Position numbers and translations under genes: made by a program
Assembly: GCA_964607225.1 (NCBI GenBank)
Contig: CAZSIU010000002.1
Location: forward strand, 1 to 55,115
DNA length: 55,115 nt
Reading direction: 5' to 3'
From: an uncultured Methanosarcinales archaeon
GTDB taxonomy: Archaea > Nanobdellota > Nanobdellia > Woesearchaeales > GW2011-AR4
Part shown: piece after piece, positions 32,809-50,630 of the stretch
Layout: every line of letters starts with the position of its first letter
Numbering within the stretch: the stretch's first letter is position 1
The notes under the pieces: model-generated
Database searches by the model: none
What the model saw: only the letters and a program-made list of their open reading frames with translations
Told to the model about the DNA's origin: nothing

Positions 32809-33564
32809 ATGAAAAAAATGCATACTCTTGTTGTAGGTGGTACTAGAGGAATAGGCAAAGCTTTAGTCAGGTTGCTTGCCAACAAAAGAAACTTAGTTTC
32901 GGTTATTGCCAGAAATCACCCTAACCAGGGCAAAGCAGTAAAAGGAGCAACTTATTGGAAATTAGACATAACGAAAGTTGATGCCTTTAAAAAGATGCTT
33001 CCAAGAATAATAAGAAAAAATGGAAAACTGAACAATCTGGTTTTCTTTCAGAAATACAGAGGGGATGAAGACTGGAAAGGAGAAATTATGCTAAGCCTTA
33101 CAGCAACAAAAAATATAATAGAGATTACTCCTACGTTCTTTGTGGATGAAGGCGGCTCAATTGTCATTATGAGCTCGAGCGTAGGACACCTTATATCTTA
33201 CGACCAGCCTTTAGGCTATCATGTGGGAAAGGCTGGAATTAACCAGATGGCAAGATATTATGCAGTAAAGCTTGGACATAAAGGAATAAGGGTAAACTCT
33301 GTTTCTCCATGCGCAGTCCTAAAGGAAGAGACAAAGGAATTCTACCAAAAAAACAAGAATCTCTATAATCTCTACAAGGATATTGCCCCTTTGGGAAGAA
33401 TGGGAACTTCCGAGGATATTGCTAATGTCATAATGTTCCTTTGCAGCCCAGCTGGTTCTTTTATTACCGGCCAAAACATAATCGTTGACGGCGGCATTTC
33501 AATTATAGGACAGGAAGCCCTTGGGAGGAAGCTGATGTCACAAACAGACACGAAAAGAAAATAA
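32809..33564 (+). CDS. Classical short-chain dehydrogenase/reductase, paralog of 43950-44738
   Basis: VVGGTRGIGKAL, YHVGKAGINQM (Y-x3-K) and GRMGTSEDIANV...ITGQNIIVDGG. Confidence 0.8.
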   Translation: MKKMHTLVVGGTRGIGKALVRLLANKRNLVSVIARNHPNQGKAVKGATYWKLDITKVDAFKKMLPRIIRKNGKLNNLVFFQKYRGDEDWKGEIMLSLTATKNIIEITPTFFVDEGGSIVIMSSSVGHLISYDQPLGYHVGKAGINQMARYYAVKLGHKGIRVNSVSPCAVLKEETKEFYQKNKNLYNLYKDIAPLGRMGTSEDIANVIMFLCSPAGSFITGQNIIVDGGISIIGQEALGRKLMSQTDTKRK

Positions 33565-33582: not shown

Positions 33583-34605
33583 TTATGCCCCTCTTTTATT
33601 TTCCTGCTCAATAATCTTTTTCATTCTTCTGACATTGTAATACTTATCATCATCAATATCTTTGATTAACCCATTCTCAAATGCCTGCTTTAGCTCTATG
33701 ATTGCCTCTTTGACGCTATGCTTTGGTTCAAAGCCTAACTCATTCTTTATCTTATCCGAGCAAACATGATAGGACCTAAGATCATTGGATTCCTCAACTT
33801 TAACTTCCACATTTCCAACGACTTCTCTCACTAGGCTGGCTATTTCCAAAACCTTAAGATTCTCGTAGCCTGCATTATAGATTTTTCCGTTAATCTTATC
33901 CATAGGGGTTTCTAAAAGTATCTCGAACACTCTTACCATGTCCTTAATATGTATGTTAGGCCTTAGCTGTGTTCCTCCAAAGACAGTTATCTTTCCTTTA
34001 TTTATTGCAAGATTTGTAATAATGTTTACCACAACATCCAGCCTTTGCCTGGGAGAATAGCCACACACTGTTGAAGGCCGTATTATGACTCCTTTAAAGC
34101 TTCCTTTTAAGCGATGCAAAAGGTAATGCTCTATCTCTACTTTTAGTCTGGAGTACTGGGTCAATGGCTCCAGCTCGAGGTCTTCTGTAACATTTTTTTC
34201 CTGCTTTATGCCGTATACACTGCTTGTTGACGCATATACAAACTTTTTTACCCCAGCATCTTTAGACAAATCAATAAGATTTATCTGGCCATCATAGTTA
34301 ACAGAATGTGTAAAGTCTGAATCTAGTTCAGAACTTGGGTCGTTTGAGACGCAAGCTAGGTGTATTATGCTGTCTGCATCCTTTAATGAAGCTTCTACCT
34401 CCTTCTTGTTTCTTAAATCCCCTTTTATAATTCTGATATTGGGGTTATTGTCTATGCCTAGTGCTTCCTGGTACTCCTTAACGGAATTCCAGAACCAAAA
34501 AGTATCCAATACAGTGACTTTGTAGCCCTTTTTCAATAAGCTGGAAACTAGAGGTGATCCAACGTAACCTGCTCCTCCTGTTACAAGCACCCTTTCCGTT
34601 AGCAT
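33583..34605 (-). CDS. NAD-dependent nucleotide-sugar epimerase/dehydratase (extended SDR)
   Basis: VLVTGGAGYVGSPLV, STSSVYG and YSRLKVEIE. Confidence 0.8.
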   Translation of the reverse strand: MLTERVLVTGGAGYVGSPLVSSLLKKGYKVTVLDTFWFWNSVKEYQEALGIDNNPNIRIIKGDLRNKKEVEASLKDADSIIHLACVSNDPSSELDSDFTHSVNYDGQINLIDLSKDAGVKKFVYASTSSVYGIKQEKNVTEDLELEPLTQYSRLKVEIEHYLLHRLKGSFKGVIIRPSTVCGYSPRQRLDVVVNIITNLAINKGKITVFGGTQLRPNIHIKDMVRVFEILLETPMDKINGKIYNAGYENLKVLEIASLVREVVGNVEVKVEESNDLRSYHVCSDKIKNELGFEPKHSVKEAIIELKQAFENGLIKDIDDDKYYNVRRMKKIIEQENKRGA

Positions 34606-34636: not shown

Positions 34637-35626
34637 TCAATCTTCTTTGAGGTATTTAAACCACTCTTTTGTTGCCTCTGCAATTGTCTCCTCATCCCAC
34701 ACAGGCGTATTTTTCCAGTAACCTATATTATCAAGCATTATTTTTACACCTTCTTCAAAAGATACTTGAGGTTCCCATTTAAGAAGCTTTTTTGCTTTCG
34801 TAATGTCTGCATGGGTAGAATCTGGTTCTCCAGGTCTCTTTGGTATATTTATGGTGGGGCCGCCTATTAATTTTGCAAGATAGTTTATGGATTGGGGCTT
34901 TCCGGTCCCGATATTAATAACCTCTCCATTTATGTCTGATTCTGCTGCCATTAGGTTTGCCCTGGCAATATCAGTAACATAAGTAAAGTCTCTTGTCTGG
35001 TTACCATCGCCTACAATGGTAAGGGGTTTATTATGGATCTTTTGTGAGAGAAAAACCTTAAAGACAGCTCCATAAGTGTCATTTGATCTTGCTCTTGTTC
35101 CAAAAACGTTAAAATACCTTAAAGATATCACTGGAAGCTTGTAAATCTTCCCCCAGAAGAGCGCATATTCTTCTGCAATGTGCTTCGTAAAAGCATATGG
35201 ATGCTTTGGCCTCATTTCAGCATCTTCTAGTGTAGGGTATTTGTCCGGAATTCCGTAGGATGTTGAGGAACCGCTAAAAACAAATTTTTTGATTTTATGT
35301 TGTCTGCTTGCCTCCAAAGTCCTTATTGTTGAATTAACATTAGCGTTGTGGTACTTTAATGGTTGTCTGATAGAAGGTACTATATCCGCCAATGCTGCCA
35401 TATGGAATACGTAAGTAGCCCCATTAAAAGAGCTTTCGTCAAATTCTTGCGAAAGGTCTATCTTATGGAACTCGTAATTTGGATTGTCCTCAAAAATTTT
35501 CACATTATCATATTGCCCATTTGACATATCATCAATAGCTATAACTGCAAACCCATTTTCCAGAAGATACTCCACCATATGGCTGCCTATGAATCCTGCA
35601 CCACCGGTTACTATTGCTTTCTTCAT
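34637..35626 (-). CDS. NAD-dependent nucleotide-sugar epimerase/dehydratase (extended SDR)
   Basis: AIVTGGAGFIGSHMV, SGSSTSYG and YAFTKHIAEEY. Confidence 0.8.
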   Translation of the reverse strand: MKKAIVTGGAGFIGSHMVEYLLENGFAVIAIDDMSNGQYDNVKIFEDNPNYEFHKIDLSQEFDESSFNGATYVFHMAALADIVPSIRQPLKYHNANVNSTIRTLEASRQHKIKKFVFSGSSTSYGIPDKYPTLEDAEMRPKHPYAFTKHIAEEYALFWGKIYKLPVISLRYFNVFGTRARSNDTYGAVFKVFLSQKIHNKPLTIVGDGNQTRDFTYVTDIARANLMAAESDINGEVINIGTGKPQSINYLAKLIGGPTINIPKRPGEPDSTHADITKAKKLLKWEPQVSFEEGVKIMLDNIGYWKNTPVWDEETIAEATKEWFKYLKED

Positions 35627-35736
35627 CTTACATTATTAAACTAGCGGGATAACTTGTAATTTATAAATATTTTTATATAACTTTGTAGTCTGTCCATAAC
35701 GAAAGCTTAATAAAAATAAGTAAAATACCTGCAATC

Positions 35737-37389
35737 ATGAATTTAGTCGTAGGAGTGGACCTCGATAATACAATTGTAAGTTACGATGAGCTACTGCATA
35801 GAGTAGCTGTAGAGCATAGTCTCATAAATCGTAGTACTAGAAAGAGCAAACGGCGTATAAGGGATATTATAAGGGAACTTCCTCATGGAGATATGAAGTG
35901 GCAAAAGCTCCAGGCATTGGTTTATGGGCCTAAAATGAAAGAGGCCGAGCTAATAAAAGGTGTAAGCAAGTTTTTTAGATTGTGCAAAAAGAATGATGCA
36001 AAAGTATACATAATAAGCCACAAAACAGAGTTTGCAAGCTATGACAAAACAAAAACCAACCTTAGATCTGCTGCTATTGACTGGATGGAAAAAAACAAGT
36101 TTTTTAAAGATAAGGGATTATCGTTATCGAAGAAAGACGTCTATTTTGAAGCGACAAGAGCAGGAAAAATATCAAAAATAAAAGAGTTGAGATGTACTCA
36201 TTTCATAGATGATCTCGAGGAAACATTTCTGGAAGAAACTTTTCCAAAAGAAGTGGAAAAAATTTTATATGACCCACACCAGGGGCATAAACATTTGGTT
36301 GGAGCAAAAGTTTTTGCAAGTTGGGATGGTATAAATAAATATTTATTCAGTAAAAAGAGTGAGGTATTGCAGAAAGAGGCCATACTTTCCAGAGTGCTTG
36401 GGAAAGACATAGCTTCAATAAAGAACATAGGCGATGGCAGGAATAGTAGAGTGTATTTGCTGACATATTCTAATAACCGAAGAGTTATAGCAAAATTTTA
36501 TTTCTCGCATGAGTTTGACAAAAGAGACAGAATGAATGTGGAGTTTAATAGCTTAAAATTTTTATGGGATAATGGTGTCAGGTGCGTACCAGAACCAATA
36601 GACTGCTATAAAAATCATAATTTTGCTTTGTATAGTTATATCGAAGGTGTTAAAGTATCTAATGTGACATCCGCTGACATCCAAGTTGCATCTGGTTTCC
36701 TCAGAAAGCTTGATTCGTTGAAAAATGAAAAAAGAGCTGCTGAATTGCCTGAAGCGTCAGAAGCCTGTTTTTCAGTTGAGGACATTGCAAAAAGCATAAA
36801 TAAGAGGTACAAAAGGTTGGCATCTTTAAGAAATAACAAGAATAACAAACCGCTCCATGAATTCCTGGAAAAGGAGTTTATGCCTTCTTTTCAGGGAATT
36901 TTGCAATGGTGCAAATCAGAGATAGAAAGGCATAAAATAGGGTACTCAACAAGAATAGGAAAAAAAGATAGAACACTAAGTCCTTCTGATTTCGGTTTCC
37001 ATAATGCGTTAAGGGAAAAAAACGGCAGCATAGTATTCCTGGATTTTGAGTATTTTGGATGGGATGATCCGGCAAAAATGATGTCAGATTTCCTATTGCA
37101 CCCAGGCATGCAACTAACCGAAAAACTAAAGAAACAGTTTATAAATAATATGGCCTACCATTTTCAAGATAAAAATATAACAAAAAGGTTAGGGATTGTC
37201 TATCCTTTATTTGGCTTGAAGTGGTGCCTAATCCTCCTTAACGAATTTGTTAATGAAGATTTCTTAAGGCGTAGGTTTGCATATAATGGAAGTCTGCCTA
37301 GAAGACCTATACTCACGCAACAATTATTAAAGGCTAAACAGCTCCTCACTCAAATAAATAGGGAATTCAGTAATTTCACATTTGTCTAA
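35737..37389 (+). CDS. Fusion: HAD-like phosphatase domain :: APH/choline-kinase-fold kinase
   Basis: N-terminal VGVDLDNTIV (D-x-D-x-T). C-terminal LSPSDFGFHNAL...VFLDFEYFGWDDP matches the catalytic-loop and DFE metal-loop pattern of aminoglycoside/choline kinase-like enzymes. Confidence 0.6.
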   Translation: MNLVVGVDLDNTIVSYDELLHRVAVEHSLINRSTRKSKRRIRDIIRELPHGDMKWQKLQALVYGPKMKEAELIKGVSKFFRLCKKNDAKVYIISHKTEFASYDKTKTNLRSAAIDWMEKNKFFKDKGLSLSKKDVYFEATRAGKISKIKELRCTHFIDDLEETFLEETFPKEVEKILYDPHQGHKHLVGAKVFASWDGINKYLFSKKSEVLQKEAILSRVLGKDIASIKNIGDGRNSRVYLLTYSNNRRVIAKFYFSHEFDKRDRMNVEFNSLKFLWDNGVRCVPEPIDCYKNHNFALYSYIEGVKVSNVTSADIQVASGFLRKLDSLKNEKRAAELPEASEACFSVEDIAKSINKRYKRLASLRNNKNNKPLHEFLEKEFMPSFQGILQWCKSEIERHKIGYSTRIGKKDRTLSPSDFGFHNALREKNGSIVFLDFEYFGWDDPAKMMSDFLLHPGMQLTEKLKKQFINNMAYHFQDKNITKRLGIVYPLFGLKWCLILLNEFVNEDFLRRRFAYNGSLPRRPILTQQLLKAKQLLTQINREFSNFTFV

Positions 37390-37398
37390 GTGGTAAAA

Positions 37399-38214
37399 AT
37401 GGATACGCTAGAGTTGGATAAAAGGTCTAAAGATTTAAGGAAGACTATAATTGAAATAATGGGTTGTGGAGGAAGAGGGCACCTAGGATCTGCCTTCTCT
37501 ATAGTGGAAATATTGCGTGTACTTTATGATGATATCATGCTCTATGATGCCAAAAACCTTAAATGGAATGAAAGAGATAGGTTTATCCTAAGCAAAGGGC
37601 ATGGGTGCCTTGCGCTTTATGCAATACTTGCTGAAAAAGGATTTTTTCCAAAATCAGAATTGAAAAAGTTCTGCAAAAGCGATTCCATTCTTGGAGGCCA
37701 TCCTGAGCATAGAATACCTGGTGTAGAAGCCTCAACAGGAAGCCTTGGCCACGGCCTCTCATATGGGATAGGGTTTGCCCTTAATGCGCGCTACGAAAAA
37801 CTCAATTACAGAACCTTTGTGGTAATAGGAGATGGTGAATCCAATGAGGGTTCTATCTGGGAAGCGGCACTTTGCGCAGGAAAGCACAAGCTTAGCAACT
37901 TAACGGTTTTGGTTGATTATAACAAGTACATGACTTATGGGCAGACTTCCGAGGTGCAGGATATGGAGCCTTTTGCTGATAAATGGAGAAGCTTTAATTT
38001 CGGTGTCAAAGAAGTTGACGGGCATGATATAAATGAAATTAAAGGCGTATTGTCAAATTTACCTATTAGCAAAAATAAGCCCAATGCAATAATCTGCCAT
38101 ACCATAAAAGGCAAGGGTATTAAGTTTGCGGAAGGAAATATGGAATGGCACCATAAGAGCAGTATAGGCGAAGAGGAATTAAAGGCCCTGTATAAAGCGC
38201 TGGAGGAGTATTAA
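37399..38214 (+). CDS. Transketolase, N-terminal (ThDP-binding PP) subunit
   Basis: GHLGSAFSIVEIL, SKGHG and VIGDGESNEGSIWEA are canonical. GTG 37390 is an alternative start. Confidence 0.85.
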   Translation: MDTLELDKRSKDLRKTIIEIMGCGGRGHLGSAFSIVEILRVLYDDIMLYDAKNLKWNERDRFILSKGHGCLALYAILAEKGFFPKSELKKFCKSDSILGGHPEHRIPGVEASTGSLGHGLSYGIGFALNARYEKLNYRTFVVIGDGESNEGSIWEAALCAGKHKLSNLTVLVDYNKYMTYGQTSEVQDMEPFADKWRSFNFGVKEVDGHDINEIKGVLSNLPISKNKPNAIICHTIKGKGIKFAEGNMEWHHKSSIGEEELKALYKALEEY

Positions 38215-39137
38215 TGAGAAAGACAGCTTTGGAGATGGTCTATGAATTGGCTAAAAAAGACAAAAGAATATTCTTTATAGGCTCTGATTTAGGCGCTGGA
38301 ACTTTAAAGCAATTTAAGGAAGAGATGCCGGAAAGATTTTTTATGGAAGGTGTATCAGAACAGAATATAATAGGCATGGCTGCTGGCCTTGCGATGGAAG
38401 GAAAAATTGTTTACGTTAATACTATCTCTACTTTCATTACTAGGCGTTGTTTTGAACAGAACGTCCTGGATTTGGGCTTGCATAACGCTAATGTAAGGTT
38501 AATTGGGAATGGTGGTGGCTTAGTGTATGCTCCTCTTGGACCTACTCATGACGCGATTGAGGATATAGCCATTATGAGGACAATTCCTAATATGACTATT
38601 GTTGCTCCTGCAGATGCGGATGAAATGCGAAGATTTATGCCGCAGAGTGTAAATTATAAAGGTCCCATATATATCAGGCTCGCAAAAGGAAATGATCCTA
38701 TTGTGACAAACGACAAGGTTCCATTTAAGATAGGAAAAGCAATACCTATGCGGGAAGGTTCGGATGCTTTAGTAATTACAACTGGAATCACTCTTAAGCT
38801 TGCTCTGGAAGCAGCGGACATACTTAAGAAAGAGAGTATGGATTTAGCGGTGCTTCATGTCCCGACTATTAAGCCTTTAGACAGGAAGAGTATCATTGAA
38901 TATGCCAAAAAAGTGCCTGCCATCGTTACTATTGAAGAGCACACATTGATTGGAGGCCTCGGAAGCGCTGTGGCCGAAATCATTGCAGAAACAGACTTTA
39001 ATTCAAGTAAACGCTTTAAACGTATTGGAATTCCGGATGTTTTTCCTGATGAATATGGGTCCCAAGCTAGTCTTATGGAGAAATACTCAATATCTACAGA
39101 ACAACTGTTGATTGAAATAAAAAATTTAATAAAATGA
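38214..39137 (+). CDS. Transketolase, C-terminal (Pyr + C-terminal domain) subunit
   Basis: FFMEGVSEQNIIGMAAGLA and GPTHDAIEDIAIMR. ATGA overlap with the N-terminal subunit. Confidence 0.85.
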   Translation: MRKTALEMVYELAKKDKRIFFIGSDLGAGTLKQFKEEMPERFFMEGVSEQNIIGMAAGLAMEGKIVYVNTISTFITRRCFEQNVLDLGLHNANVRLIGNGGGLVYAPLGPTHDAIEDIAIMRTIPNMTIVAPADADEMRRFMPQSVNYKGPIYIRLAKGNDPIVTNDKVPFKIGKAIPMREGSDALVITTGITLKLALEAADILKKESMDLAVLHVPTIKPLDRKSIIEYAKKVPAIVTIEEHTLIGGLGSAVAEIIAETDFNSSKRFKRIGIPDVFPDEYGSQASLMEKYSISTEQLLIEIKNLIK

Positions 39138-39174
39138 GGATAATTATCATGCTTTAATAGGAGGTTTTAAGAAT

Positions 39175-39837
39175 ATGGGAAGATTGCTAGAAGTTATAAC
39201 TCCATTGCATAAAAAGACTAAGAGAGATTATATTGGGAGAATGAATGATGATAAGATAGAGTGTTCCAAAGTGGCAAGGAAATACGGCCAGGAATACTGG
39301 GACGGCGACAGAAGATACGGTTATGGTGGATATAAGTACGACGGCAGGCAATCTGCGATAGCAAAAAGGCTTATTGAAATTTATAATCTGCCGGAAAATG
39401 CAAAAATATTGGATGTTGGATGCGGAAAAGGGTATTTATTGTATGAATTCAGGAAGCTTCTCCCAAAAGCTAAAGTGATTGGTTTTGACATTTCTGAATA
39501 TGCAATCCAAAATGCAAAAGAAGAGGTAAAGGATAACCTTTTTGTAGCAAGAGCCCAGGATCCATTTAAATTCGGAGATAAAGAGTTTGATTTAGTGGTC
39601 TCAATAACAACATTACATAACCTCAAAATTGATGAGCTCACACCTGCATTAAAAGAGATTGAAAGAGTTGGGAAAAACAAGTATATTGCCGTGGAAAGTT
39701 ATAGAAATGTTGCGGAATTATTTAATTTACAGTGCTGGGCATTGACTGCTGAAGCCTTTTTTACCAATGAAGAATGGGCATGGCTGTTTGATCATTTTGG
39801 CTATACCGGCGATTATGAGTTTATATATTTTGAATAG
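39175..39837 (+). CDS. Class I SAM-dependent methyltransferase
   Basis: ILDVGCGKGYLL motif I. The N-terminal YWDGDRRYGYGGYKYDGR segment is seen in polysaccharide-locus methyltransferases. Confidence 0.8.
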   Translation: MGRLLEVITPLHKKTKRDYIGRMNDDKIECSKVARKYGQEYWDGDRRYGYGGYKYDGRQSAIAKRLIEIYNLPENAKILDVGCGKGYLLYEFRKLLPKAKVIGFDISEYAIQNAKEEVKDNLFVARAQDPFKFGDKEFDLVVSITTLHNLKIDELTPALKEIERVGKNKYIAVESYRNVAELFNLQCWALTAEAFFTNEEWAWLFDHFGYTGDYEFIYFE

Positions 39838-40872
39838 ATGTCTACAATGAAAGCGGCAATCCTTGTAAAACAAAACTCCCCACTCATTATTGATGAGGTT
39901 GGACTTCCTAAAGATTTGGTGTATGGCCAGGTTCTTGTTAAAATAAAGTATAGCGGCATATGCGGAGCACAGCTAAATGAAATTGACGGTGCAAAAGGTC
40001 CGGACAACTTTCTGCCCCATCTTCTTGGGCATGAAGGCTCTGGAGTAGTCGAAAAAATAGGACAAGGTGTAACTAATGTCAAGCCTAATGACCACGTTGT
40101 GCTGCATTGGAGAAAAGGGAATGGCATACAATCAGCAACACCAAAATACAAATGGGGAAGCAAAACAGTAAATGCAGGATGGGTGACTACTTTTAATGAG
40201 TATGCTGTAGTTTCTGAAAATAGGATTACCACTATTCCAAAAAAAATTGATTTAAAAATTGGGCCTTTGTATGGTTGCGCGATAACTACCGGTTACGGGG
40301 TTGTGCATAACGATGCAGACTTAAAGGGCGGTCAGTCTATTGCTGTATTTGGAGCTGGAGGAGCTGGCACCGCTATTGTTCTTGCTGCTTCATTGGCATC
40401 TGCTTACCCTATTATAGCCATAGACATCAATGATTTTAAGCTGGAAAAGGCAAAAGAATTCGGAGCAACACATATGATCAATTCTCTTAAAGAAGACCCA
40501 AGTAAGAAAATCAAGGAATATGTCCCAGAAGGTGTCGATGCTGCTGTTGACACTACAGGCATCAAAAAAATAAGGGAGCTGGCATATGAATTAACCAATA
40601 AAGAAGGGACGACAGTCCTTGTCGGTGTTCCAAAAAAAGGCGATAAAATGTGCATAGATTCGTTTCCATTGCATTTTACCAAAAAAATAACTGGCTCGCA
40701 TGGAGGCTCAAGCAATCCTTCTTACGACATACCAAGACTAATCAGATTGCAGGAATCTGGAAGATTTAACTTGGAGAAAATGATCACCAAGACATATGCT
40801 TTAGATGATATTAACGATGCTATCGAGGAAGTGCGCACTGGAGATGTGATTAGATGCATGATTAAATTGTAA
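39838..40872 (+). CDS. Zn-dependent medium-chain alcohol/sugar dehydrogenase
   Basis: GICGAQLNE, GHEGSGVVEKIG and the GAGGAGTAIV Rossmann motif. Confidence 0.8.
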   Translation: MSTMKAAILVKQNSPLIIDEVGLPKDLVYGQVLVKIKYSGICGAQLNEIDGAKGPDNFLPHLLGHEGSGVVEKIGQGVTNVKPNDHVVLHWRKGNGIQSATPKYKWGSKTVNAGWVTTFNEYAVVSENRITTIPKKIDLKIGPLYGCAITTGYGVVHNDADLKGGQSIAVFGAGGAGTAIVLAASLASAYPIIAIDINDFKLEKAKEFGATHMINSLKEDPSKKIKEYVPEGVDAAVDTTGIKKIRELAYELTNKEGTTVLVGVPKKGDKMCIDSFPLHFTKKITGSHGGSSNPSYDIPRLIRLQESGRFNLEKMITKTYALDDINDAIEEVRTGDVIRCMIKL

Positions 40873-40877
40873 TACCT

Positions 40878-41603
40878 TTAAAATATTAATTTTTGTTTTA
40901 TGATTTTTCCAGGGACACCTACTACTGTAACATTATCGGGAACATCTTCAATTATTACCGAGCCGGCTCCAATAATAGAGTTTTCTCCAATCTTTATTCT
41001 GTTTATAATGGTGGCGCCAGTATGGACTCTTGTAAAACGACCTACGGTAACATTTCCTGCACACACCACGCCTGGGTCAATTGTTGCACAATCTTTTATT
41101 ACATTCTGATGGTCTATTTGAGCGTTAATATTAAGAATTACTCCAGGATATAACTCAGCTCGATAACCAACATAGGCTTTAGCGTGAAGAATTATATTAT
41201 CATGAAGTATGGCATCTTCCATTATAACAGCTGTTGGATGAATAGCATTAATTAACTCCATTCCAAATTTTCTTGCATAATTAATTTGTTTAAAGCGTTG
41301 ATATGCATCATCTGTTGTAATAAGAACTTTATTGATGTCTAACTCTTGTAAAATTTTAACCCAATTTGATGAATTTATCAGAGATTTGTCTTTAAAAGTA
41401 TTTTTGGTAGGATAGGAAAATTGAGTTGCATCCCTTTTAATCGTCTTTGGATTTATTTTAATAGCTTCATCACTAGGATTTACAAAACAAGCTATATGGT
41501 ACTTTCCTGATTTTTCAATCCAGGAATGAATTTGTCCTGCTCCCCCTTCTTGCCATCCAATAATGGCAATTGAGTTTTTTTTAACCTTTATATTAAATTT
41601 CAT
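40878..41603 (-). CDS. NeuD/PglD-type sugar N-acyltransferase (left-handed beta-helix)
   Basis: N-terminal Rossmann-like IAIIGWQEGGAGQ, with C-terminal hexapeptide repeats (IDPGVVCAGNVTVGRFTRVHTGATIINRIKIGENSIIGAGSVI). Confidence 0.65.
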   Translation of the reverse strand: MKFNIKVKKNSIAIIGWQEGGAGQIHSWIEKSGKYHIACFVNPSDEAIKINPKTIKRDATQFSYPTKNTFKDKSLINSSNWVKILQELDINKVLITTDDAYQRFKQINYARKFGMELINAIHPTAVIMEDAILHDNIILHAKAYVGYRAELYPGVILNINAQIDHQNVIKDCATIDPGVVCAGNVTVGRFTRVHTGATIINRIKIGENSIIGAGSVIIEDVPDNVTVVGVPGKIIKQKLIF

Positions 41604-41613
41604 TTTTATCTGC

Positions 41614-42705
41614 TCAAAATGATTTTAAAGCCTGTATAACTCTCTCGATATTTTCAAGCGGTTGGTCGGGTCCGCATGGTAAATAAAGACCATGTTCACA
41701 AAATACATCTGAATTAGGAAACTTATCAGTACTTTTTAGATAAGGTGCTGAATTGAGATTAGGCAATGAGGGTCTTGTTTCGATGCCCTCAGATTTTAGG
41801 AAGTCTGCCAGCTTGGTCCGCTCTTTGCATAATACCTCGACATATTGTGCAACTTCCCCATCTCTGACTCTTACCGGTACCATTTTAATGTAAGGTAGCT
41901 TTTCAACAGCCTTTGCATATGTCTCATAAATTTTGTTTGCATTATTAATTTTATTTTTCGCCTTAGATAACTGCACCAGCCCAATAGATGCGAGTATGTC
42001 ATTAAATTTGAAGTTACAGCCGACAAGTCTATAGACAGGATTTATATTGTCCCCTGCTCCATGCCATCTTATTAGTTTTAGCTTTTCATAAATCTCCTTG
42101 TCTTTAGTTACTACTATGCCACCTTGGGCAGTCGATATAAGCTTAGTTATGGCAAGGGAAAAGCATCCAGCATCTGATTGTGTTCCAAGATATCCCCTCT
42201 TATTTTTTGAGAACAAAGCTTGGCATGCATCTTCAATTATATTTAAGTCGTGCTCTTCTGCTATTTTTTGCATATCCTCCATATCTGCTGATGCGCCATT
42301 AAGGTGTACAGGTATTATAGCTTTTGTTTTCTTAGTGATTTTCTCTCTGATTTGCGAAGTATCTAAAAGCGGAGCATCTGGTTTGACATCCACAAGTATG
42401 ACTTTTGCCCCAAGCAATAATGGTGCATTTGCGGTTGCAATCCAAGTTCTGTTAGGAATAATGACTTCATCATCTTTGCCTATGCCTAAGGCCATTATTG
42501 ACATCAGGAGTGAAACACTGCCGCTTGTTGTAGCTATAGCATAGGGAACATCAAGGGATTTTGCTACCGCATTTTCGAATTCTTCTGTTACTGACCCCAT
42601 GCTTACATGCTCTTTAAGCAGTGAATCTCTTATTTTCTTAAGTTCTTCCTCACCGAATAAAATTCTCCACCATGGTATTTTAATGTTGTTTTCCATCTTT
42701 AACAT
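41614..42705 (-). CDS. DegT/DnrJ/EryC1/StrS-family PLP-dependent sugar aminotransferase
   Basis: 363 aa. FSLAITKLISTAQGG contains the PLP lysine. The D/E-A-C-Q motif is IIEDACQAL. Confidence 0.85.
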   Translation of the reverse strand: MLKMENNIKIPWWRILFGEEELKKIRDSLLKEHVSMGSVTEEFENAVAKSLDVPYAIATTSGSVSLLMSIMALGIGKDDEVIIPNRTWIATANAPLLLGAKVILVDVKPDAPLLDTSQIREKITKKTKAIIPVHLNGASADMEDMQKIAEEHDLNIIEDACQALFSKNKRGYLGTQSDAGCFSLAITKLISTAQGGIVVTKDKEIYEKLKLIRWHGAGDNINPVYRLVGCNFKFNDILASIGLVQLSKAKNKINNANKIYETYAKAVEKLPYIKMVPVRVRDGEVAQYVEVLCKERTKLADFLKSEGIETRPSLPNLNSAPYLKSTDKFPNSDVFCEHGLYLPCGPDQPLENIERVIQALKSF

Positions 42706-42712
42706 ATAAAAT

Positions 42713-43957
42713 CTATATCACCTCAATCTTAGGGAGAAATTTAATGAAATGGCCTCCCTGCTCAAGATAAGCTTTGTGTTTGTTTATAATAGGCTCTGCA
42801 TACTGCCAGGCAAATATTATTACGTAATCGGGCTTTTTGTCATACAAGTTTTGCGGATTTAGTACAGGAATATGCAATCCCGGACTGTATAAATTATGTC
42901 TAGATTGGTTATCGTCCACTAGGAAATCTACAATTTTGCTATCAAGCCCGAAATAATAGAGTATTGTAGTAACACCTACTGAAGCCCCGTAACCTGCAAT
43001 CGTTTTTCCTTTTTTCTTTAAATTTGTAAGTAAGCTTAATAGCTCTCTTTTTAGTTTAGTGAGTCTTTCTGAAAACAGCGCAAAAGTGTCTGCCTTTTGG
43101 ATTCCAAGAGCTTCTTCCTTATCAATCATTTTGGTAACAGAGTCTGAGACTTTTCTTGGACCATTAGCAAGCTGCACGAATCCTCTTAACGATCCTCCTT
43201 TGGTAGGGACTAGTTTTATATCTATCAGTTCCATTTCATTATTGGCAAAAAAATTCTTTAGATCTTTTACAGAAAAGTAAGTTATATGCTCATGGTATAT
43301 GTTGTCAAAAATAGTGTTTTCTATCAAGCTTGACACATAACCAGTCTCAAATACAACTACACCATCTGGCTTAAGCAAGTGCCGTATGCCTTTTATAACA
43401 TCTTGCAGATCATCAATATTTGCCAGTACATTATTTGCAATTACTATAGATGCTTGTCCATATTCTTTGACTATTTTTTCAGCTAGTTTAGAATCAAAAA
43501 AACTGGCCAGCGTATTTACTCCAGATTTATTAGCTATTTGGGCTATTTTTTTTGCAGGATCTATACCGAGCACCTGCAACCCTCTTTCCTTAAAAAACTT
43601 CAATAAAGATCCGTCGTTACTGCCAATTTCAACTACAAGGGATTTTTCAGGAAGATTTATTTTATTAATCACAGACTCTGCATATTTTTCAAAATGTTTG
43701 ACCAGTCCAAGAGAATCTGAGGAATGATAGATATAATCCATATACACAAGCTCTGGATCAACTACATCAATTATTTGTAAGAGGCCACAGCTATTACACA
43801 AATAGAGCTTAATAGGATGCAACTCTTGCTTATTATTTAGTTTCTCAGCAGGAATATAAGCATCACCTACTGGTGTGGACTCAAGCTGCAAGACTAATCT
43901 AAGGTCACCACTACTACAAAGCCTGCAATTAGTTCGCGAATATTTTTTTTTACTCAT
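42713..43957 (-). CDS. NDP-hexose C-methyltransferase (TylCIII-like: Zn ribbon + class I MT + C-terminal domain)
   Basis: CRLCSSGDL...CNSCGLLQI, VVEIGSNDGSLL and C-terminal AGYGASVGVTT...VDDNQSRHNLYSPG. Confidence 0.75.
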   Translation of the reverse strand: MSKKKYSRTNCRLCSSGDLRLVLQLESTPVGDAYIPAEKLNNKQELHPIKLYLCNSCGLLQIIDVVDPELVYMDYIYHSSDSLGLVKHFEKYAESVINKINLPEKSLVVEIGSNDGSLLKFFKERGLQVLGIDPAKKIAQIANKSGVNTLASFFDSKLAEKIVKEYGQASIVIANNVLANIDDLQDVIKGIRHLLKPDGVVVFETGYVSSLIENTIFDNIYHEHITYFSVKDLKNFFANNEMELIDIKLVPTKGGSLRGFVQLANGPRKVSDSVTKMIDKEEALGIQKADTFALFSERLTKLKRELLSLLTNLKKKGKTIAGYGASVGVTTILYYFGLDSKIVDFLVDDNQSRHNLYSPGLHIPVLNPQNLYDKKPDYVIIFAWQYAEPIINKHKAYLEQGGHFIKFLPKIEVI

Positions 43958-44738
43958 CAGGACTTTTACTTGGCTCTCTTGTTACCTTAAGATCATTTAG
44001 GGATGAAAGTTTGCGCGCTAGGGACTCGTGCCCTCTTAGAGATATGCCACCATCCACAACAAGATTTGTGCCGGTAATAAAGGATGCTTTTGCACTAGAA
44101 AGAAATATTGCAACATTAGCAATATCCTCTGATGTACCCATCCTATTAAGAGGTGAGAGGCTCTTGTAAAGATTATATAGCTTTTCATTCTTAAGATAAA
44201 AGTCTTTTGATTCATCTTTTAGAATAGTACCAGAAGAAATACAATTGAATCTTATCCCTCTTGGGCCCAGCTTAACAGCATAATACCTTATCATTTGGTT
44301 AATGCATGCTTTTCCAACATGATAGCTTAAAGGCTGTTCCTCAGCAATTAAGTAGCTTGCAATAGAACTAATAATGACAATTGAGCCGCCTTCATCAGTA
44401 AATTTGTCAGCTAAATAATCAATTATATTTTTTGTTGCTGTCAAACTCAGTTGCAGCTCTCCTGCCCAATTATCATCATGGCCTCTGTAGCGATGAGAGA
44501 AAACTATATTATTCAATTTTCCGTTTTTGTTTATAATTTCATCCAGGACATTTGGAATAGAATCCAGATTTGATAAGTCTGTTGCCCAGTAGTGGACATT
44601 TGAAATATTTGAGTCTGGTTTTGATGGAGCTCTTAGCCCAATAACCGAAACTACATGGCCTTTTTTAGACATACCTTTTACTATTGCGCGTCCAATCCCC
44701 CTAGTACCCCCTATAACAAGAGAATGTTTTTTTTTCAT
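43950..44738 (-). CDS. Classical short-chain dehydrogenase/reductase, paralog of 32809-33564
   Basis: VIGGTRGIGRAIV, YHVGKACINQM and NRMGTSEDIANV...ITGTNLVVDGG. ATG 44738 (MKKKHSL) is preferred over 44780. Confidence 0.8.
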   Translation of the reverse strand: MKKKHSLVIGGTRGIGRAIVKGMSKKGHVVSVIGLRAPSKPDSNISNVHYWATDLSNLDSIPNVLDEIINKNGKLNNIVFSHRYRGHDDNWAGELQLSLTATKNIIDYLADKFTDEGGSIVIISSIASYLIAEEQPLSYHVGKACINQMIRYYAVKLGPRGIRFNCISSGTILKDESKDFYLKNEKLYNLYKSLSPLNRMGTSEDIANVAIFLSSAKASFITGTNLVVDGGISLRGHESLARKLSSLNDLKVTREPSKSPDE

Positions 44739-44929
44739 GATAATTTCAAAATTGATTGGGATTACCCAATTATACATCAACTATATATTCGATGTTGTCA
44801 CTACGCACGATTAGAAATATATTTATAAAAGTTTGCTTTTTAAATTCCTTTTGATATTTTCAATCTTAACGATTAATTGTTAGCAAAAAATCAGTTAAAT
44901 TTAAAAATTAACGAATATTAGTTTTCGAA

Positions 44930-45961
44930 ATGGAAAAATCGGAATCTATACAAAATTTGAAAGAAGAACATTCTTTGGAAAAAATAAAGGATATACTATC
45001 CAAATTTAAGGACATTAAGACTCTTATAATTGGAGAGGCAATTATCGATGAGTACCACTTCACTGCTTCTAAAGGAAGAGCAACAAAAGACCCAATCTTA
45101 TCAGTTGATTATATAAATCATGAGGTATATGCGGGCGGAATTTTAGCAATTGCCAATCACGTCAGCAATTTTGTAAATGATGTTACAGTTGTTACGTTGA
45201 TAGGTGATAGGGAAGACAGGAAAGATTTTATAATGAATTCCCTAAATAAAAATATTACCCCAAAATTATTTGTAAAAGAAAATTCTCCTACGATAATGAA
45301 AAGGCGATACTTGGATATCATACGCAGCACTAAACTTTTCAAGGTAGAACATATTAATGATACGCCGATATCCGAGACACTAGAAAAAGAGATTGTAAAT
45401 TTCCTGGCACAAGAACTGACAAAATACGATCTTGTAATAGTAGGAGATTTCGGGCATGGATTTATCACAGAAAAAATCATAAAGGTTCTGGAAGATAAAT
45501 CAAATTTTCTGGCTGTTAATGTCCAATGCAACAGCGCCAATCTAGGGTATAATTTTGTTACAAAATATAATCGCCCGAATTTTCTCACTATGGATATACA
45601 TGAACTATGGTATGCAGTATCTGATAGGTTCAGTAAAGTTCCGGTTCTTATGGATAAACTGCATAAAAAAAAGAATTTCAACAAATTTTTAGTGACAATG
45701 AGCAAAGACGGCTCAGCATATTTTGATAATGGGAAGCAGACTTTTTCCCCTGCATTTATCACTAACCCTAAGGATACAGTTGGTGCCGGTGACGCAGTTT
45801 TTTCGATTACATCGCTATTTGCTTATACAGGCAATAGCCATATAATCCCATTTATTGCCAATTGTGCTGGCGGAATTGCCGTCAGCTACATGGGAAATAA
45901 AGAATTTATAACAAAAGAAAAATTGCTTGAGTTTATCATGCAAGTTTATAATGGGATCTAA
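44930..45961 (+). CDS. PfkB-family sugar(-phosphate) kinase, divergent RfaE-domain-I-like
   Basis: N-terminal LIIGEAIIDEY...GGILAIANHVS and C-terminal DTVGAGDAVFS anion-hole motif. Confidence 0.7.
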   Translation: MEKSESIQNLKEEHSLEKIKDILSKFKDIKTLIIGEAIIDEYHFTASKGRATKDPILSVDYINHEVYAGGILAIANHVSNFVNDVTVVTLIGDREDRKDFIMNSLNKNITPKLFVKENSPTIMKRRYLDIIRSTKLFKVEHINDTPISETLEKEIVNFLAQELTKYDLVIVGDFGHGFITEKIIKVLEDKSNFLAVNVQCNSANLGYNFVTKYNRPNFLTMDIHELWYAVSDRFSKVPVLMDKLHKKKNFNKFLVTMSKDGSAYFDNGKQTFSPAFITNPKDTVGAGDAVFSITSLFAYTGNSHIIPFIANCAGGIAVSYMGNKEFITKEKLLEFIMQVYNGI

Positions 45962-45968
45962 AAATACG

Positions 45969-47036
45969 CTAAATTTTGTCAAATTCTTTCTTTAGCTCCT
46001 GGTAACTCTTACCAGTAACGTCTATGAATCTGGCATTTACATTTTCAGCAAGCTTGGAGTCCTCTCGACTGTTTCCAATAATAATAATCTTGTCAAAGTC
46101 ATCGATCTTCACATTCAACTCTTTAATGGCATTGTAAAACATATCGGGGTTAGGCTTTCTTGCTGTACTTTTTTTTATGAAGTCTGGCAAGAATTTAGTA
46201 TCTTTCATCACATTTGCATAATTTATGTCAACATAAGGGCAATATCGCCAATTATCTACGACAATTCCTTTACTTCTTAGTGATTTAGAGATATTTTTAT
46301 TTATAGACTCTACTGTTCTTCTACTGAAGTATCCTCGTGCAACTCCCTGCTGATTAGAAATAACTACCATCACTGTGTCATTTTTTGCCTGTATATAGTT
46401 AAGCAAATCAACAACTTCTTTTTTTAACTTTATACTTTTTTCCCAGTTTTTCTCCCTTCCCAAAAATTTGACCTCTTCTATTAGGGTTCCATCCCGATCT
46501 ATGCCCAATAATACCTTTTCTCTTTTTACATTTTCTTGGATGTACCTAATTATATCCGTAGTTGACAGTTTCTCATCGGAAGTGTATATTACCTCCCCTC
46601 CTAAGGATTTTATTTTACTCCTTTCCCGAGTTATTCCGGGAGTAGTCTTGCTTACAAAGTCAGGACCTTTCACGTAATAAGATGGCTTTAATTTTTCTAT
46701 CACAGCCATAGCTTTCTTAAAATCACTTATAACCACATAATCAACATATCTGATACTAGCAACTGAATAAGCCCGCAGCATCTCCGGAAAAATCGGCCTG
46801 CCGCTTCCTTTTCTTGAAGTTACGAATCTGTCAGATGTGACAGAAACAAAAAGATGGTCGCACAATTTAGATGCGGATTCCAAATGTTTAATATGGCCAG
46901 GGTGCAACAAATCAAAGCCGCCATGGCACAAGCCAACGGTCTTATTTAGAGATTTTAATTTTGCTATTTTCCTGGCTGCTGTAGCTATATCCACAATTTT
47001 ATCTGACTTAAAGTGATTTACTTCTGCTTTAATCAT
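45969..47036 (-). CDS. Fusion: cytidylyltransferase-fold sugar-1-P nucleotidyltransferase (RfaE-domain-II-like) :: HAD-IIIA phosphatase (GmhB-like)
   Basis: GGFDLLHPGHIKHLESAS (H-x-G-H) and RKGSGRPIF, followed by IDRDGTLIEE, ISNQQGVARGYF and RKPNPDMF. ATG 47036 is preferred over the TTG at 47087. Confidence 0.7.
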   Translation of the reverse strand: MIKAEVNHFKSDKIVDIATAARKIAKLKSLNKTVGLCHGGFDLLHPGHIKHLESASKLCDHLFVSVTSDRFVTSRKGSGRPIFPEMLRAYSVASIRYVDYVVISDFKKAMAVIEKLKPSYYVKGPDFVSKTTPGITRERSKIKSLGGEVIYTSDEKLSTTDIIRYIQENVKREKVLLGIDRDGTLIEEVKFLGREKNWEKSIKLKKEVVDLLNYIQAKNDTVMVVISNQQGVARGYFSRRTVESINKNISKSLRSKGIVVDNWRYCPYVDINYANVMKDTKFLPDFIKKSTARKPNPDMFYNAIKELNVKIDDFDKIIIIGNSREDSKLAENVNARFIDVTGKSYQELKKEFDKI

Positions 47037-47095
47037 TTTATTTTTAAGCGTATATGCGGTAAATATAAATATATAATAAAATGTCAAAAATTTTT

Positions 47096-47450: not shown

Positions 47451-48236
47451 ATGGGTAAATATAAGGTCGTGATATTATGCGGAGGAATGGGAACGAGATT
47501 AAAGGAAGAGACGGAATTTCGTCCAAAGCCTTTAGTTCATATTGGCGCATTTCCTATTCTATGGCATATAATGAAGCATTATTCTCATTATGGATTTAAC
47601 GACTTTGTCTTATGCCTGGGCTACAAGGGGGAGATGATCAAGGAGTACTTCCTTAACTATGGGTGGATGAGCAATGATTTTACCCTCAACCTGGGCAAAG
47701 GAAAAGGCCAGTTAAGCAATCATACAGATAATACTGAAAACTGGAACATAACATTTGCCGATACAGGAGACACAACGCAGACAGGAGGAAGAATCAAAAA
47801 AATAGAGAAGCACATAAAAGAGGATAACTTCTTGGCCACTTATGGAGATGGAGTTTCCAATGTCGATATCAAAAGGCTTATTGGATTCCATAAGGAAAAA
47901 AATAAAATCGGAACATTAACAGGAGTGCATCCATGGTCCAAATACGGGACGGTGCATACAGATAAAAACGGCATAATAACAAAGTTTACCGAGAAGCCGA
48001 TGCTCAAGGACGTGATAAACGGCGGTTTTTTTGTCTTCAAAAAAGACATATTCGATTATCTAGATAACGAGTGCATGCTTGAAAAAGAACCTTTTGAGAA
48101 ATTAGCCCAGGAGAAGCAACTTACCTTGTTCAAGCATGATGGGTTCTGGCATTGTATGGATACTTATAAGGATTTCCAGGAATTGAATGCAATTTGGGAG
48201 AAAGGAAATGCACCATGGAACATCTGGGGACTATAA
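47451..48236 (+). CDS. rfbF: Glucose-1-phosphate cytidylyltransferase
   Basis: VILCGGMGTRLKEETEFRPKPLVHIGAFPILWHIMKHYSHYGFNDFVLCLGYKG is the canonical RfbF/DdhA N-terminus. Confidence 0.9.
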   Translation: MGKYKVVILCGGMGTRLKEETEFRPKPLVHIGAFPILWHIMKHYSHYGFNDFVLCLGYKGEMIKEYFLNYGWMSNDFTLNLGKGKGQLSNHTDNTENWNITFADTGDTTQTGGRIKKIEKHIKEDNFLATYGDGVSNVDIKRLIGFHKEKNKIGTLTGVHPWSKYGTVHTDKNGIITKFTEKPMLKDVINGGFFVFKKDIFDYLDNECMLEKEPFEKLAQEKQLTLFKHDGFWHCMDTYKDFQELNAIWEKGNAPWNIWGL

Positions 48237-48237
48237 A

Positions 48238-50623: not shown

Positions 50624-50630
50624 AAGGCTT

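Follow-up and report, generated by a model that had tools for sequence, protein, structure and literature searches.

A split transketolase with a changed acceptor pocket in a widespread nucleotide-sugar cassette: a candidate carbon–carbon bond-forming enzyme of surface-glycan heptose synthesis

The window analyzed here, a 55,115-nucleotide stretch of contig CAZSIU010000002.1 from an uncultured archaeon, encodes a transketolase (TK) that is split into an N-terminal (TK-N) and a C-terminal (TK-C) subunit and lies among genes of nucleotide-sugar metabolism. On the sequence evidence this is a dedicated enzyme of a glycan-sugar pathway and not a pentose phosphate enzyme, and it is part of a cassette that is conserved and horizontally mobile. 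We propose that the split TK forms a carbon–carbon bond and would add a two-carbon unit to an oxidized nucleoside diphosphate (NDP)-heptose for a surface glycan, an assignment to which we give an even chance. The proteins of the window were assigned by searches with Pfam and NCBIfam profiles, with NCBIfam scores judged against the curated cut-off of each family. The TK pair and the genes around it are as follows.

33583–34605, minus strand: short-chain dehydrogenase/reductase (SDR), candidate Cj1427-like NDP-heptose C4 dehydrogenase (PDB 6vo6/6vo8, E = 8e-37).
34637–35626, minus strand: GalE/TviC-type NDP-sugar 4-epimerase-like SDR (best PDB relatives are UDP-glucose, UDP-GlcA, and UDP-GlcNAc 4-epimerases).
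35737–37389, plus strand: HAD phosphatase (amino acids 1–205) fused to an APH/choline-kinase-like kinase (amino acids 210–550); 550 amino acids in all, with the Pfam APH match at 228–446.
37399–38214, plus strand: N-terminal (PP-domain) subunit of a TK-like thiamine diphosphate (ThDP) enzyme (Transketolase_N, 156 bits).
38214–39137, plus strand: C-terminal (Pyr and C domain) subunit of the TK-like ThDP enzyme (Transket_pyr and Transketolase_C).
39175–39837, plus strand: 220-amino-acid class I S-adenosylmethionine (SAM) methyltransferase (Pfam Methyltransf_31, _25, and _11).
39838–40872, plus strand: medium-chain zinc-dependent alcohol dehydrogenase (Zn-ADH; Pfam ADH_N and ADH_zinc_N), resembling class I/III alcohol dehydrogenases and benzyl-alcohol dehydrogenase.
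40878–41603, minus strand: NeuD/PglB/VioB-type hexapeptide N-acyltransferase, accessory (TIGR03570 at 133 bits, below the cut-off of 160.8).
41614–42705, minus strand: DegT/PseC-type NDP-ketosugar aminotransferase, accessory (DegT_DnrJ_EryC1, 290 bits).
42713–43957, minus strand: TylC3-type NDP-ketosugar C-methyltransferase, accessory (Methyltransf_13 and Methyltransf_14).
43950–44780, minus strand: FabG-like SDR, accessory ketoreductase (adh_short_C2).

An earlier sequence-only reading had described the genes from 35737 to 44738 as one consecutive tailoring block. All of the genes it named are present in their places with the domains it gave them, but the open reading frame (ORF) map resolves them into two convergent operons rather than one co-directional run: a plus-strand operon from the HAD–APH fusion through TK-N, TK-C, and the methyltransferase to the Zn-ADH, and a minus-strand operon of SDR, C-methyltransferase, DegT, and NeuD genes, with the converging stop codons 5 nt apart. 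The TK subunits, said to be coupled through an ATGA, overlap instead by the single base of a TAATG, and TK-N starts at ATG 37399 (271 amino acids, matching the public call P0001) and not at GTG 37390.

The best PDB matches of both subunits are to the split TK of C. hydrogenoformans (6yak for TK-N, E = 4e-71; 6yaj for TK-C, E = 7e-59). The TK family was aligned with this characterized enzyme and with human TK, and residues are given in E. coli numbering. Across 65 cassette TK sequences, the ThDP/Mg motifs GDGE.nEGS.WEa and vDyNk are conserved, and TK-N keeps the equivalents of His26, His66, His100, and His261 (in RGH, SKGHG, GGHPE, and WHh). In the family alignment, TK-C keeps those of the catalytic Glu411 and His473. 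The cassette enzyme shares with canonical TKs the fold, the ThDP/Mg motif, the catalytic residues, and the two substrate arginines, and with the C. hydrogenoformans enzyme also its two-subunit build.

Canonical TK differs in the acceptor/phosphate pocket. In TK-C of nearly all cassette members, S385 is replaced by G29, H461 by G100, E468 by P107, and D469 by L108, whereas 6yaj and human TK keep S385, H461, and D469; the equivalents of R358 and R520 are retained in the cassette family as well. The GED segment that holds E468 and D469 reads APL in the cassette family, and the surrounding motif GGGxVYAPLGPTH occurs in 118 of 120 further homologs, none of which has GEDG. In work on S385Y/D469T/R520Q variants, the S385, H461, and D469 positions are reported to govern the acceptance of phosphorylated, 2-hydroxylated aldoses by E. 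coli TK (PMC5073344). The pocket is predicted to be enlarged by the glycines, and the retained equivalents of R358 and R520 could hold a diphosphate. Because these acceptor-pocket residues are replaced, the cassette enzyme is not a canonical transketolase (EC 2.2.1.1). A YerE-type lyase fold (single chain, TPP_enzyme_N/M/C) was also considered and rejected, as Pfam finds only TK, DXS, and E1-type domains.

The second line of evidence is the gene context. TK-N has thousands of homologs at 66–84% identity, and all 8 of the contexts inspected in this range, from Woesearchaeota, a Pseudomonadota metagenome-assembled genome (MAG), and large metagenomic contigs, carry the cassette. A scan of one genome per species gave 80 loci, all ORFs of which were scored against the window proteins; 63 loci have a TK of the close clade, and the 41 of them in which TK-N is bordered by 6 kb or more on each side were counted as full cassette loci. 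The neighborhood search from the TK pair that the sequence-only reading had called for places close relatives in one colinear cassette in about 60 genomes, usually in the order Cj1427-like SDR, HAD, APH, TK-N, TK-C, 220-amino-acid methyltransferase, and then usually Zn-ADH. This same order in some 60 unrelated genomes puts the arrangement far from chance. Almost none of the cassette partners are found in the 22 loci whose TK belongs to more distant clades (Dehalococcoidia, Actinomycetes, and Oscillospiraceae), and among the loci examined the cassette-type TK genes never stand in a pentose phosphate context.

In the 41 full loci, TK-C is present in 100%, the Cj1427-like SDR in 95%, HAD/APH in 90%, the 220-amino-acid methyltransferase in 90%, the PfkB kinase paralog in 78%, the GalE/TviC-like SDR in 71%, and the Zn-ADH in 54%. 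The C-methyltransferases are rarer (56% for the 42713–43957 type, 46% for the cupin-fused 27759–29510 type), as are DegT of the 41614–42705 type (44%), the SDR of the 43950–44780 type (15%), and NeuD (5%). Directly upstream of [HAD-APH]-TKN, the commonest gene is the Cj1427-like SDR (26 of 63 loci). The 220-amino-acid methyltransferase, the most constant partner of the TK pair, is the first gene after TK-C in 32 of 63 loci, and the second is the Zn-ADH in 20 of 63; a 2-oxoglutarate (2OG)-oxygenase-like gene, scoring about 100–130 bits to the 30694–31479 protein of the window, directly follows TK-C in 14 of 63. The Zn-ADH, the 2OG-oxygenase-like gene, and a DegT pair largely alternate beside the TK. 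The tailoring set that had been read as a unit thus separates into two parts: the methyltransferase and the Zn-ADH, the latter in about half of the loci, are conserved partners of the TK, as are the HAD phosphatase, the APH-type kinase, and the Cj1427-like SDR, while the genes for NeuD, DegT, C-methylation, and the FabG-like SDR vary from locus to locus and count as accessories. The functional unit is also larger than 35737–44738, extending over roughly 26329–47087, because genes of this whole region form one colinear operon, minus DegT, NeuD, and the FabG-type SDRs, in an Omnitrophota MAG (L011) and a Planctomycetales MAG (L010).

Carriers span more than 10 phyla of bacteria and archaea. They include Woesearchaeota, Omnitrophota, Elusimicrobiota, Planctomycetota, Acidobacteriota, Verrucomicrobiota, WWE3, Alphaproteobacteria (Bradyrhizobium, including B. 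japonicum SZCCT0153, and Pelagibacter), Bacteriovoracales, Nitrospirota, and Lachnospiraceae. Solidesulfovibrio carbinolicus DSM 3852, a cultured carrier, has it on plasmid pDCAR1 (locus L088) directly after pseB and pseC, in an island that also holds a NeuB-family gene, pseF, and a gene for a Maf-type (MptE-like) protein. There pseB, which encodes a 4-keto-forming dehydratase, and pseC take the position of the Cj1427-like SDR, and a further split TK pair, whose acceptor motif is near-canonical (SHLGLDVGPDGATHQ), lies beside the cassette at 5067–9319 of L088.

Both lines of evidence bear on whether the enzyme is an ordinary transketolase, either the organism's pentose phosphate enzyme or a copy recruited to raise the supply of sedoheptulose-7-phosphate for heptose synthesis. 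Archaea commonly have split TKs, as do some bacteria; the C. hydrogenoformans enzyme to which 6yaj and 6yak belong is said to be a true transketolase, and sedoheptulose-7-phosphate is the precursor of the heptose pathways encoded in the window. However, the family-wide loss of S385, H461, and D469, all kept by the characterized split TK and by human TK, would be unexpected in an enzyme serving only sedoheptulose-7-phosphate supply. The pair is also locked into a tailoring cassette across its many host phyla, with HAD–kinase fusions in some genomes, and the S. carbinolicus copy is plasmid-borne beside a second, more canonical pair. It occurs, moreover, in organisms such as Bradyrhizobium and Pelagibacter, which have full-length TKs. 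We consider an ordinary transketolase highly improbable, and the housekeeping assignment, which the earlier reading had named as the result that would undo it, was rejected on the conserved context and the diverged active site.

The sugar on which the split TK would act is suggested by a set of paralogs of heptose-pathway genes near it, which stand in the window together with a canonical set.

26329–26859, plus strand: SIS-domain sugar-phosphate isomerase, GmhA paralog (Pfam SIS_2; gmhA TIGR00441 at 128.8 bits, cut-off 209).
26861–27766, plus strand: GDP-fucose-synthase-like SDR (Pfam Epimerase; weak NCBIfam matches to GDP-L-fucose synthase and heptose epimerase), a candidate 4-ketoreductase or epimerase-reductase.
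44930–45961, plus strand: PfkB kinase, divergent paralog of the HldE kinase domain (RfaE domain I at 118.8 bits, cut-off 345).
45969–47087, minus strand: nucleotidyltransferase (HldE domain II paralog) fused to a GmhB-like HAD phosphatase (Pfam CTP_transf_like and PNK3P/HAD; RfaE domain II at 108.4 bits, cut-off 181.5, and GmhB at 69.5, cut-off 178).
51879–53852, minus strand: canonical ADP-heptose set of three separate genes, an HldA-type kinase, GmhB, and an HldC-type adenylyltransferase, by NCBIfam (HldE domain I at 375 bits, cut-off 345; domain II at 182, cut-off 181.5; GmhB at 164, cut-off 178).

The cassette paralogs score far below the canonical cut-offs while their folds match, and the presence of the canonical set in the window makes them extra copies; beside the 51879–53852 set no canonical GmhA was found. 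The SIS isomerase is the probable first step of an NDP-heptose-type pipeline of the cassette. Similar genes accompany the cassette elsewhere: SIS genes co-occur with it and are sometimes fused to PfkB (L007), the cassette PfkB is usually fused to a CTP_transf_like domain, and the GDP-fucose-synthase-like SDR is colinear with it in L004, L008, L010, L011, and L016. In the capsular heptose pathway of C. jejuni, a 4-keto hub is formed from a sedoheptulose-7-phosphate-derived NDP-heptose by the C4 dehydrogenase Cj1427, followed by the epimerase Cj1430 and the reductase Cj1428. The window resembles this and ADP-heptose synthesis in its Cj1427-like SDR, cupins, GDP-fucose-synthase-like SDR, and canonical and paralogous GmhA/HldE/GmhB-type genes; the TK, HAD-kinase, and C-methyltransferases of the cassette are absent from the C. 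jejuni system. Both SDRs upstream of the HAD–APH fusion were also considered as 4,6-dehydratases leading to a 6-deoxy sugar, and this was rejected because neither has a TDE or SE acid pair: that at 33583–34605 has STSSVYG and YxxxK motifs and lacks the TDE dehydratase motif, and that at 34637–35626 has SSTSYG and YxxxK and lacks the dehydratase acid pair. The amino-sugar product suggested earlier is accordingly to be revised in its scaffold, which the GmhA/HldE/GmhB paralogs and the Cj1427-like dehydrogenase near the TK indicate is rather a heptose-type NDP-sugar.

What the sequences show directly is the domain identities, the recurrence of the cassette, the altered active site, and the gene fusions; from these we infer the substrate, the position attacked, the order of the TK, kinase, alcohol dehydrogenase, and HAD–methyltransferase steps, and the product. 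The GmhA (SIS), HldE kinase (PfkB), GmhB (HAD), and HldE nucleotidyltransferase paralogs would make an NDP-heptose-type sugar, which the Cj1427-like SDR (33583–34605) would oxidize to an NDP-4-keto-heptose, a type of substrate that the C-methyltransferases and DegT also require. The TK would take a glycolaldehyde unit, as dihydroxyethyl-ThDP, from a ketose phosphate or hydroxypyruvate and add it to the sugar carbonyl, giving a tertiary alcohol with a hydroxyacetyl branch or, with lower likelihood, a chain longer by two carbons. The APH-type kinase would then phosphorylate the new primary hydroxyl, and as the phosphorylated product would be unable to act as a TK donor, the TK reaction could not reverse. 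The new ketone would be reduced by the Zn-ADH or, in sister loci, be transaminated by DegT-type enzymes or acted on by 2OG-oxygenase-like ones, after which the HAD domain would strip the phosphate and the 220-amino-acid methyltransferase would methylate the new side chain. C-methyl, amino, and N-acetyl groups would come from the lineage-specific accessories.

Three features of the loci support branching. The TK is operonic with a keto-forming enzyme and not with an isomerase and kinase, and HAD–APH–TK-N fusions couple the TK to the kinase and the phosphatase. The reductase, transaminase, and 2OG-oxygenase that alternate beside the TK would fit as well, by analogy with the reduction, transamination, and oxygenation described as tailoring of ThDP-made acyl branches (PMC9306805). 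The glycine-enlarged pocket with its two remaining arginines points the same way.

The same features weigh against a role of the TK further upstream, in which it would add the two carbons to an unusual aldose phosphate, such as a 2-deoxy, 2-amino, 2-O-methyl, or manno-configured sugar phosphate, and yield a nonstandard ketose phosphate that the SIS, PfkB, HAD phosphatase, and nucleotidyltransferase proteins would convert to an NDP-higher-sugar. There is precedent in the lincosamide octose, which is made by the transaldolase LmbR, the isomerase LmbN, the kinase LmbP, the phosphatase LmbK, and the nucleotidyltransferase LmbO, so that a dedicated C–C bond-forming enzyme of pentose phosphate type feeds a heptose-like activation pipeline of GmhA/kinase/GmhB/nucleotidyltransferase-like proteins. 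The cassette resembles this pathway in having both such an enzyme and such a pipeline, and it nearly always occurs with the GmhA, HldE, and GmhB paralogs, which in the window score well below canonical cut-offs and stand in addition to a canonical set; the loss of the D469 equivalent would fit an acceptor without a D-2-hydroxyl, and the two phosphate-binding arginines are kept. The lincosamide enzyme is, however, a transaldolase that transfers three carbons, and the cassette TK shares its operon with the keto-forming SDR or pseB/pseC rather than with SIS and PfkB, which lie 13 kb away on the other strand in pDCAR1 and 9 kb and 6 kb away in the window. An upstream TK would also leave the alternating reductase, transaminase, or 2OG-oxygenase-like gene beside it unexplained and give the second kinase–phosphatase pair, which is fused to the TK, no clear role, and the disappearance of 2 of the 4 phosphate-site residues is unexpected with sugar monophosphate substrates. 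Between the ketose-phosphate precursor and the two-carbon branch or extension that the first reading had offered as alternatives, the evidence favors the latter, and we regard synthesis of the precursor, the main rival, as doubtful.

For branching of an NDP-keto-heptose, the HAD–APH kinase would be the trapping step, and its fusion proved genuine. An alignment of 58 homologs shows little or no variation in the HAD motifs D8xD10xT12, S94/T97, K144, and D158D159 and none in the kinase residues D418, N423, and D436; Pfam APH scores 32.4 bits (cut-off 23.2), and the AlphaFold models are confident, with predicted local distance difference test scores of 92.6 at full length and 94.4 for the HAD domain alone. 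The modeled HAD domain has a Rossmannoid HAD-like fold with a helical cap between motifs I and II and is closest to capped 5'(3')-deoxyribonucleotidases (TM 0.68–0.72), and the kinase domain matches LicA, choline and ethanolamine kinases, APH(9), and NahK with a Foldseek probability of 1.00, both comparisons being informative at the superfamily level only. A sequence search of the fusion against solved structures gave no match. The family comprises 2,359 clusters (50% identity) at E <= 1e-30; in most bacterial loci HAD and APH are separate genes, and three proteins (P0138, P0141, and P0163) are HAD–APH–TK-N triple fusions.

The structural relatives of the kinase raise a further explanation, in which the HAD-kinase, TK, methyltransferase, and Zn-ADH would make a small phosphorylated substituent and leave the sugar skeleton unchanged. 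Glycolaldehyde released by the TK might, for example, be reduced or aminated, phosphorylated, methylated, and activated by the cytidylyltransferase-like enzyme, or N-acylation might draw on a glycolyl unit from the TK. Choline and ethanolamine kinases, including LicA, are indeed the structures that match the kinase domain best, the CTP_transf_like fold is shared with phosphoethanolamine, phosphocholine, and glycerol-3-phosphate cytidylyltransferases, the Zn-ADH resembles enzymes for small primary alcohols and aldehydes, and a platform of TK and acyl carrier protein that delivers two-carbon units in tetrahydroisoquinoline antibiotics is known (cited in PMC9371744). The kinase match is, however, generic for the APH/ChoK superfamily, with NahK, MtnK, and APH(9) scoring similarly, and the cassette has no acyl carrier protein, lipoyl-E2, or LicD-type transferase. 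The DegT-family enzymes and GalE-type SDRs locked to the TK act on NDP-sugars, and the NeuD acyltransferase is present in few of the full loci. A small substituent is improbable on these grounds.

Some observations count against branching of an NDP-keto-heptose and its kinase trap. Acceptance of a ketone in vitro has never been shown for a TK-family enzyme, and the corresponding proposal for miharamycin is unproven (PMC12247030). Loci of Pelagibacter, Magnetobacterium, and Lachnospiraceae have no HAD-kinase, so the trapping step is not obligatory. Some TK clades outside the cassette (Oscillospiraceae) also have leucine at the D469 position, and this change alone is therefore not diagnostic. 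The match of the 33583–34605 SDR to 6vo6, which we take to be the C. jejuni GDP-heptose C4 dehydrogenase Cj1427, is about 130 bits and no proof of C4 dehydrogenase activity.

The cassette or its product was not found described in the full-text literature, in agreement with the failure of the earlier reading to match the gene set to a known pathway, and a partial precedent lies in the split-gene TKs of miharamycin and amipurimycin biosynthesis, which have been proposed to transfer a hydroxyacetyl group to a keto sugar (Wang 2020, Romo 2019, and Krug 2024, as reviewed in PMC12247030). As in the cassette, a two-gene TK there belongs to a sugar-modifying cluster and follows a putative keto-sugar-forming oxidoreductase, and the proposed chemistry, addition of a two-carbon ketol to a ketone to give a tertiary alcohol, is that of our model. 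The likeness is one of gene organization and proposed chemistry. The antibiotic enzymes differ in serving a guanyl-glucuronate nucleoside and in being reported from Streptomyces only (the 13 further candidate split TK sequences in PMC12247030 are all from this genus), whereas the cassette stands in NDP-heptose surface-glycan loci of widely separated phyla, and its HAD phosphatase, APH-type kinase, and 220-amino-acid methyltransferase go unmentioned for miharamycin and amipurimycin in the passage of that review consulted. The cassette would thus be a widespread variant of the proposed split-TK sugar branching, for which we found no published characterization.

ThDP chemistry on sugars is otherwise represented by the YerE/ErwE lyases and AlphaKADH2 (E1 alpha/beta), which make the C-branched sugars yersiniose, erwiniose, aldgarose, and paulomycose (PMC9306805 and PMC12247030). 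These resemble the cassette model in forming a ThDP-dependent C–C bond on an NDP-4-keto sugar, with the branch carbonyl then reduced, transaminated, or oxygenated. They are of the decarboxylase or 2-oxoacid-dehydrogenase E1 type, whereas Pfam places the cassette enzyme in the TK type, and they use 2-oxo acid donors to install acetyl or longer acyl branches, whereas the branch to be expected from a TK is hydroxyacetyl and bears a primary alcohol, in keeping with the dedicated kinase, phosphatase, and methyltransferase of the cassette.

A more ambitious reading makes the cassette a general route to nine-carbon or carbocycle-fused heptose-based sugars, including bicyclic C10 compounds like bradyrhizose (7 + 2 + 1 carbons); we think it very unlikely and give it the least weight. 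The TK would form a ketol on an NDP-keto-heptose, an intramolecular aldol reaction with the sugar carbonyl would close the second ring, and C-methylation would follow. Genes for bradyrhizose are still unidentified, and the paper describing this sugar gives no gene list for its 11-gene cluster (PMC4743980). Genomes of nonphotosynthetic Bradyrhizobium (L037 and L038) carry the cassette with three C-methyltransferase-like genes, but a homology search with Bradyrhizobium TK-C gave no match in a named photosynthetic Bradyrhizobium, and the match in L091 is an unrelated rearranged locus. Were this reading true, the window would hold the archaeal version of an unrecognized family of higher-carbon sugars widespread in uncultured bacteria, SAR11, and DPANN.

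The remaining genes of the region, which are accessories or belong to other systems, are listed here.

27759–29510, plus strand: C-methyltransferase fused to a WbuC-family cupin (Pfam Methyltransf_13 and Methyltransf_14; TIGR04366 at 122.8 bits, cut-off 42, amino acids 429–559).
30276–30719, minus strand: small protein related to the LIC12192 family ("sporadic carbohydrate cluster"; BLASTP E = 5e-9 to L060:16275-16703, which itself matches TIGR04323 at 124 bits, cut-off 55).
30694–31479, minus strand: 2OG-Fe(II) oxygenase of a "sporadic carbohydrate cluster" family (TIGR04324 at 196 bits, cut-off 150).
31498–32448, minus strand: radical SAM/SPASM enzyme, accessory tailoring (Pfam Radical_SAM and SPASM).
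32809–33564, plus strand: FabG-like SDR, accessory ketoreductase (Pfam adh_short_C2; NCBIfam FabG-like matches all below their cut-offs).
47451–51389, plus strand: CDP-hexose operon of glucose-1-phosphate cytidylyltransferase, CDP-glucose 4,6-dehydratase, FdtA-like cupin, SDR reductase/epimerase, and GT2 genes.

Both C-methyltransferases (42713–43957 and 27759–29510) show the TylC3-type trio of Zn-ribbon, class I SAM domain, and C-terminal Methyltransf_14, and the 220-amino-acid methyltransferase carries the family-specific N-terminal motif YWD..R.GYGGY.YDGR. Elsewhere, radical SAM genes stand beside the TK in L024, L029, L032, L061, L066, and L088, high-scoring DegT orthologs occur in L004, L008, L016, L027, and others, and the 43950–44780-type SDR usually adjoins a C-methyltransferase. 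The window holds three separable nucleotide-sugar systems, the cassette, the canonical ADP-heptose set, and the CDP-glucose set. In the last of these, the first two products (47451–49275) both score above their NCBIfam cut-offs, and the operon probably makes a CDP-6-deoxyhexose; as listed, the ORFs of its first two genes share 50 nt, so that the CDP-glucose 4,6-dehydratase probably starts later. These two genes were rejected as cassette members, since they co-occur with it in 0–2% of loci. Farther on, at 54114–55040 (minus strand), lies a gene for a GSU2086-family protein (NF052581, 423 bits) with a weak deoxyhypusine-synthase-like Pfam match; because its homologs adjoin the CTP-HAD and PfkB paralogs in two distant loci (L061 and L087), it may belong to the pathway.

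The divergent intergenic regions 35627–35736 and 44781–44929 are AT-rich, contain TTTATAAATA and TATATA boxes, and show no obvious Shine-Dalgarno spacing, features consistent with archaeal promoters and with the affinity of the best matches to Woesearchaeota. From these features and those matches, the source is probably a Woesearchaeote-like archaeon. At 10846–15896 (plus strand), two very large proteins of 927 and 756 amino acids with FG-GAP and PKD repeats are encoded next to PMT_2/DUF6541-type membrane glycosyltransferases (377–6428 and 17901–20150); this group probably comprises surface proteins together with the machinery that glycosylates with the products of the downstream sugar genes.

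Several carrier loci have further peculiarities. Around the second TK pair of pDCAR1, which shares the flagellin-glycosylation-type island with the cassette, lie genes for FabG, two methyltransferases, and an ATP-grasp enzyme; this pair may be another glycan-associated TK system. The cassette TK-N of this plasmid (L088 15040–16003) is intact yet absent from the plasmid gene table; its frame is open upstream to 15040, the limit of the translated stretch, and overlaps the end of the annotated APH gene at 15077, and it may represent an APH–TK-N fusion or a gene left out of the table. Two cassette-type TK pairs stand in tandem in L091 (4510–11682), interrupted by insertion sequence elements, with a B12-radical SAM gene between them and a DUF6016 (WbuC-cupin-like) Pfam match on one TK-N. 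A TIGR04372-family glycosyltransferase accompanies the cassette in Pelagibacter (L060 6020–7345) and Solidesulfovibrio (L088 22800–24380) and is a candidate transferase for the modified sugar; nothing clearly corresponding to it was found in the window.

Sugars are known to be branched or extended by ThDP enzymes in a few O-antigens (YerE type) and antibiotics, and for a TK this role is so far no more than a proposal, made for two nucleoside antibiotics of Streptomyces. The cassette family places a TK at the center of a surface-glycan pathway whose carriers include SAR11, candidate-phyla bacteria, and DPANN archaea. If our proposal is true, these organisms would make a class of higher-carbon or hydroxyacetyl-branched heptoses that is both new and abundant, and the recurrent annotation of "transketolase" in glycan loci would be explained. 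The family would also offer TK variants with a naturally remodeled acceptor pocket, altered at the very sites where enzyme engineers introduce mutations into E. coli TK. With S. carbinolicus and B. japonicum SZCCT0153, there are two cultured carriers in which the model can be tested directly.

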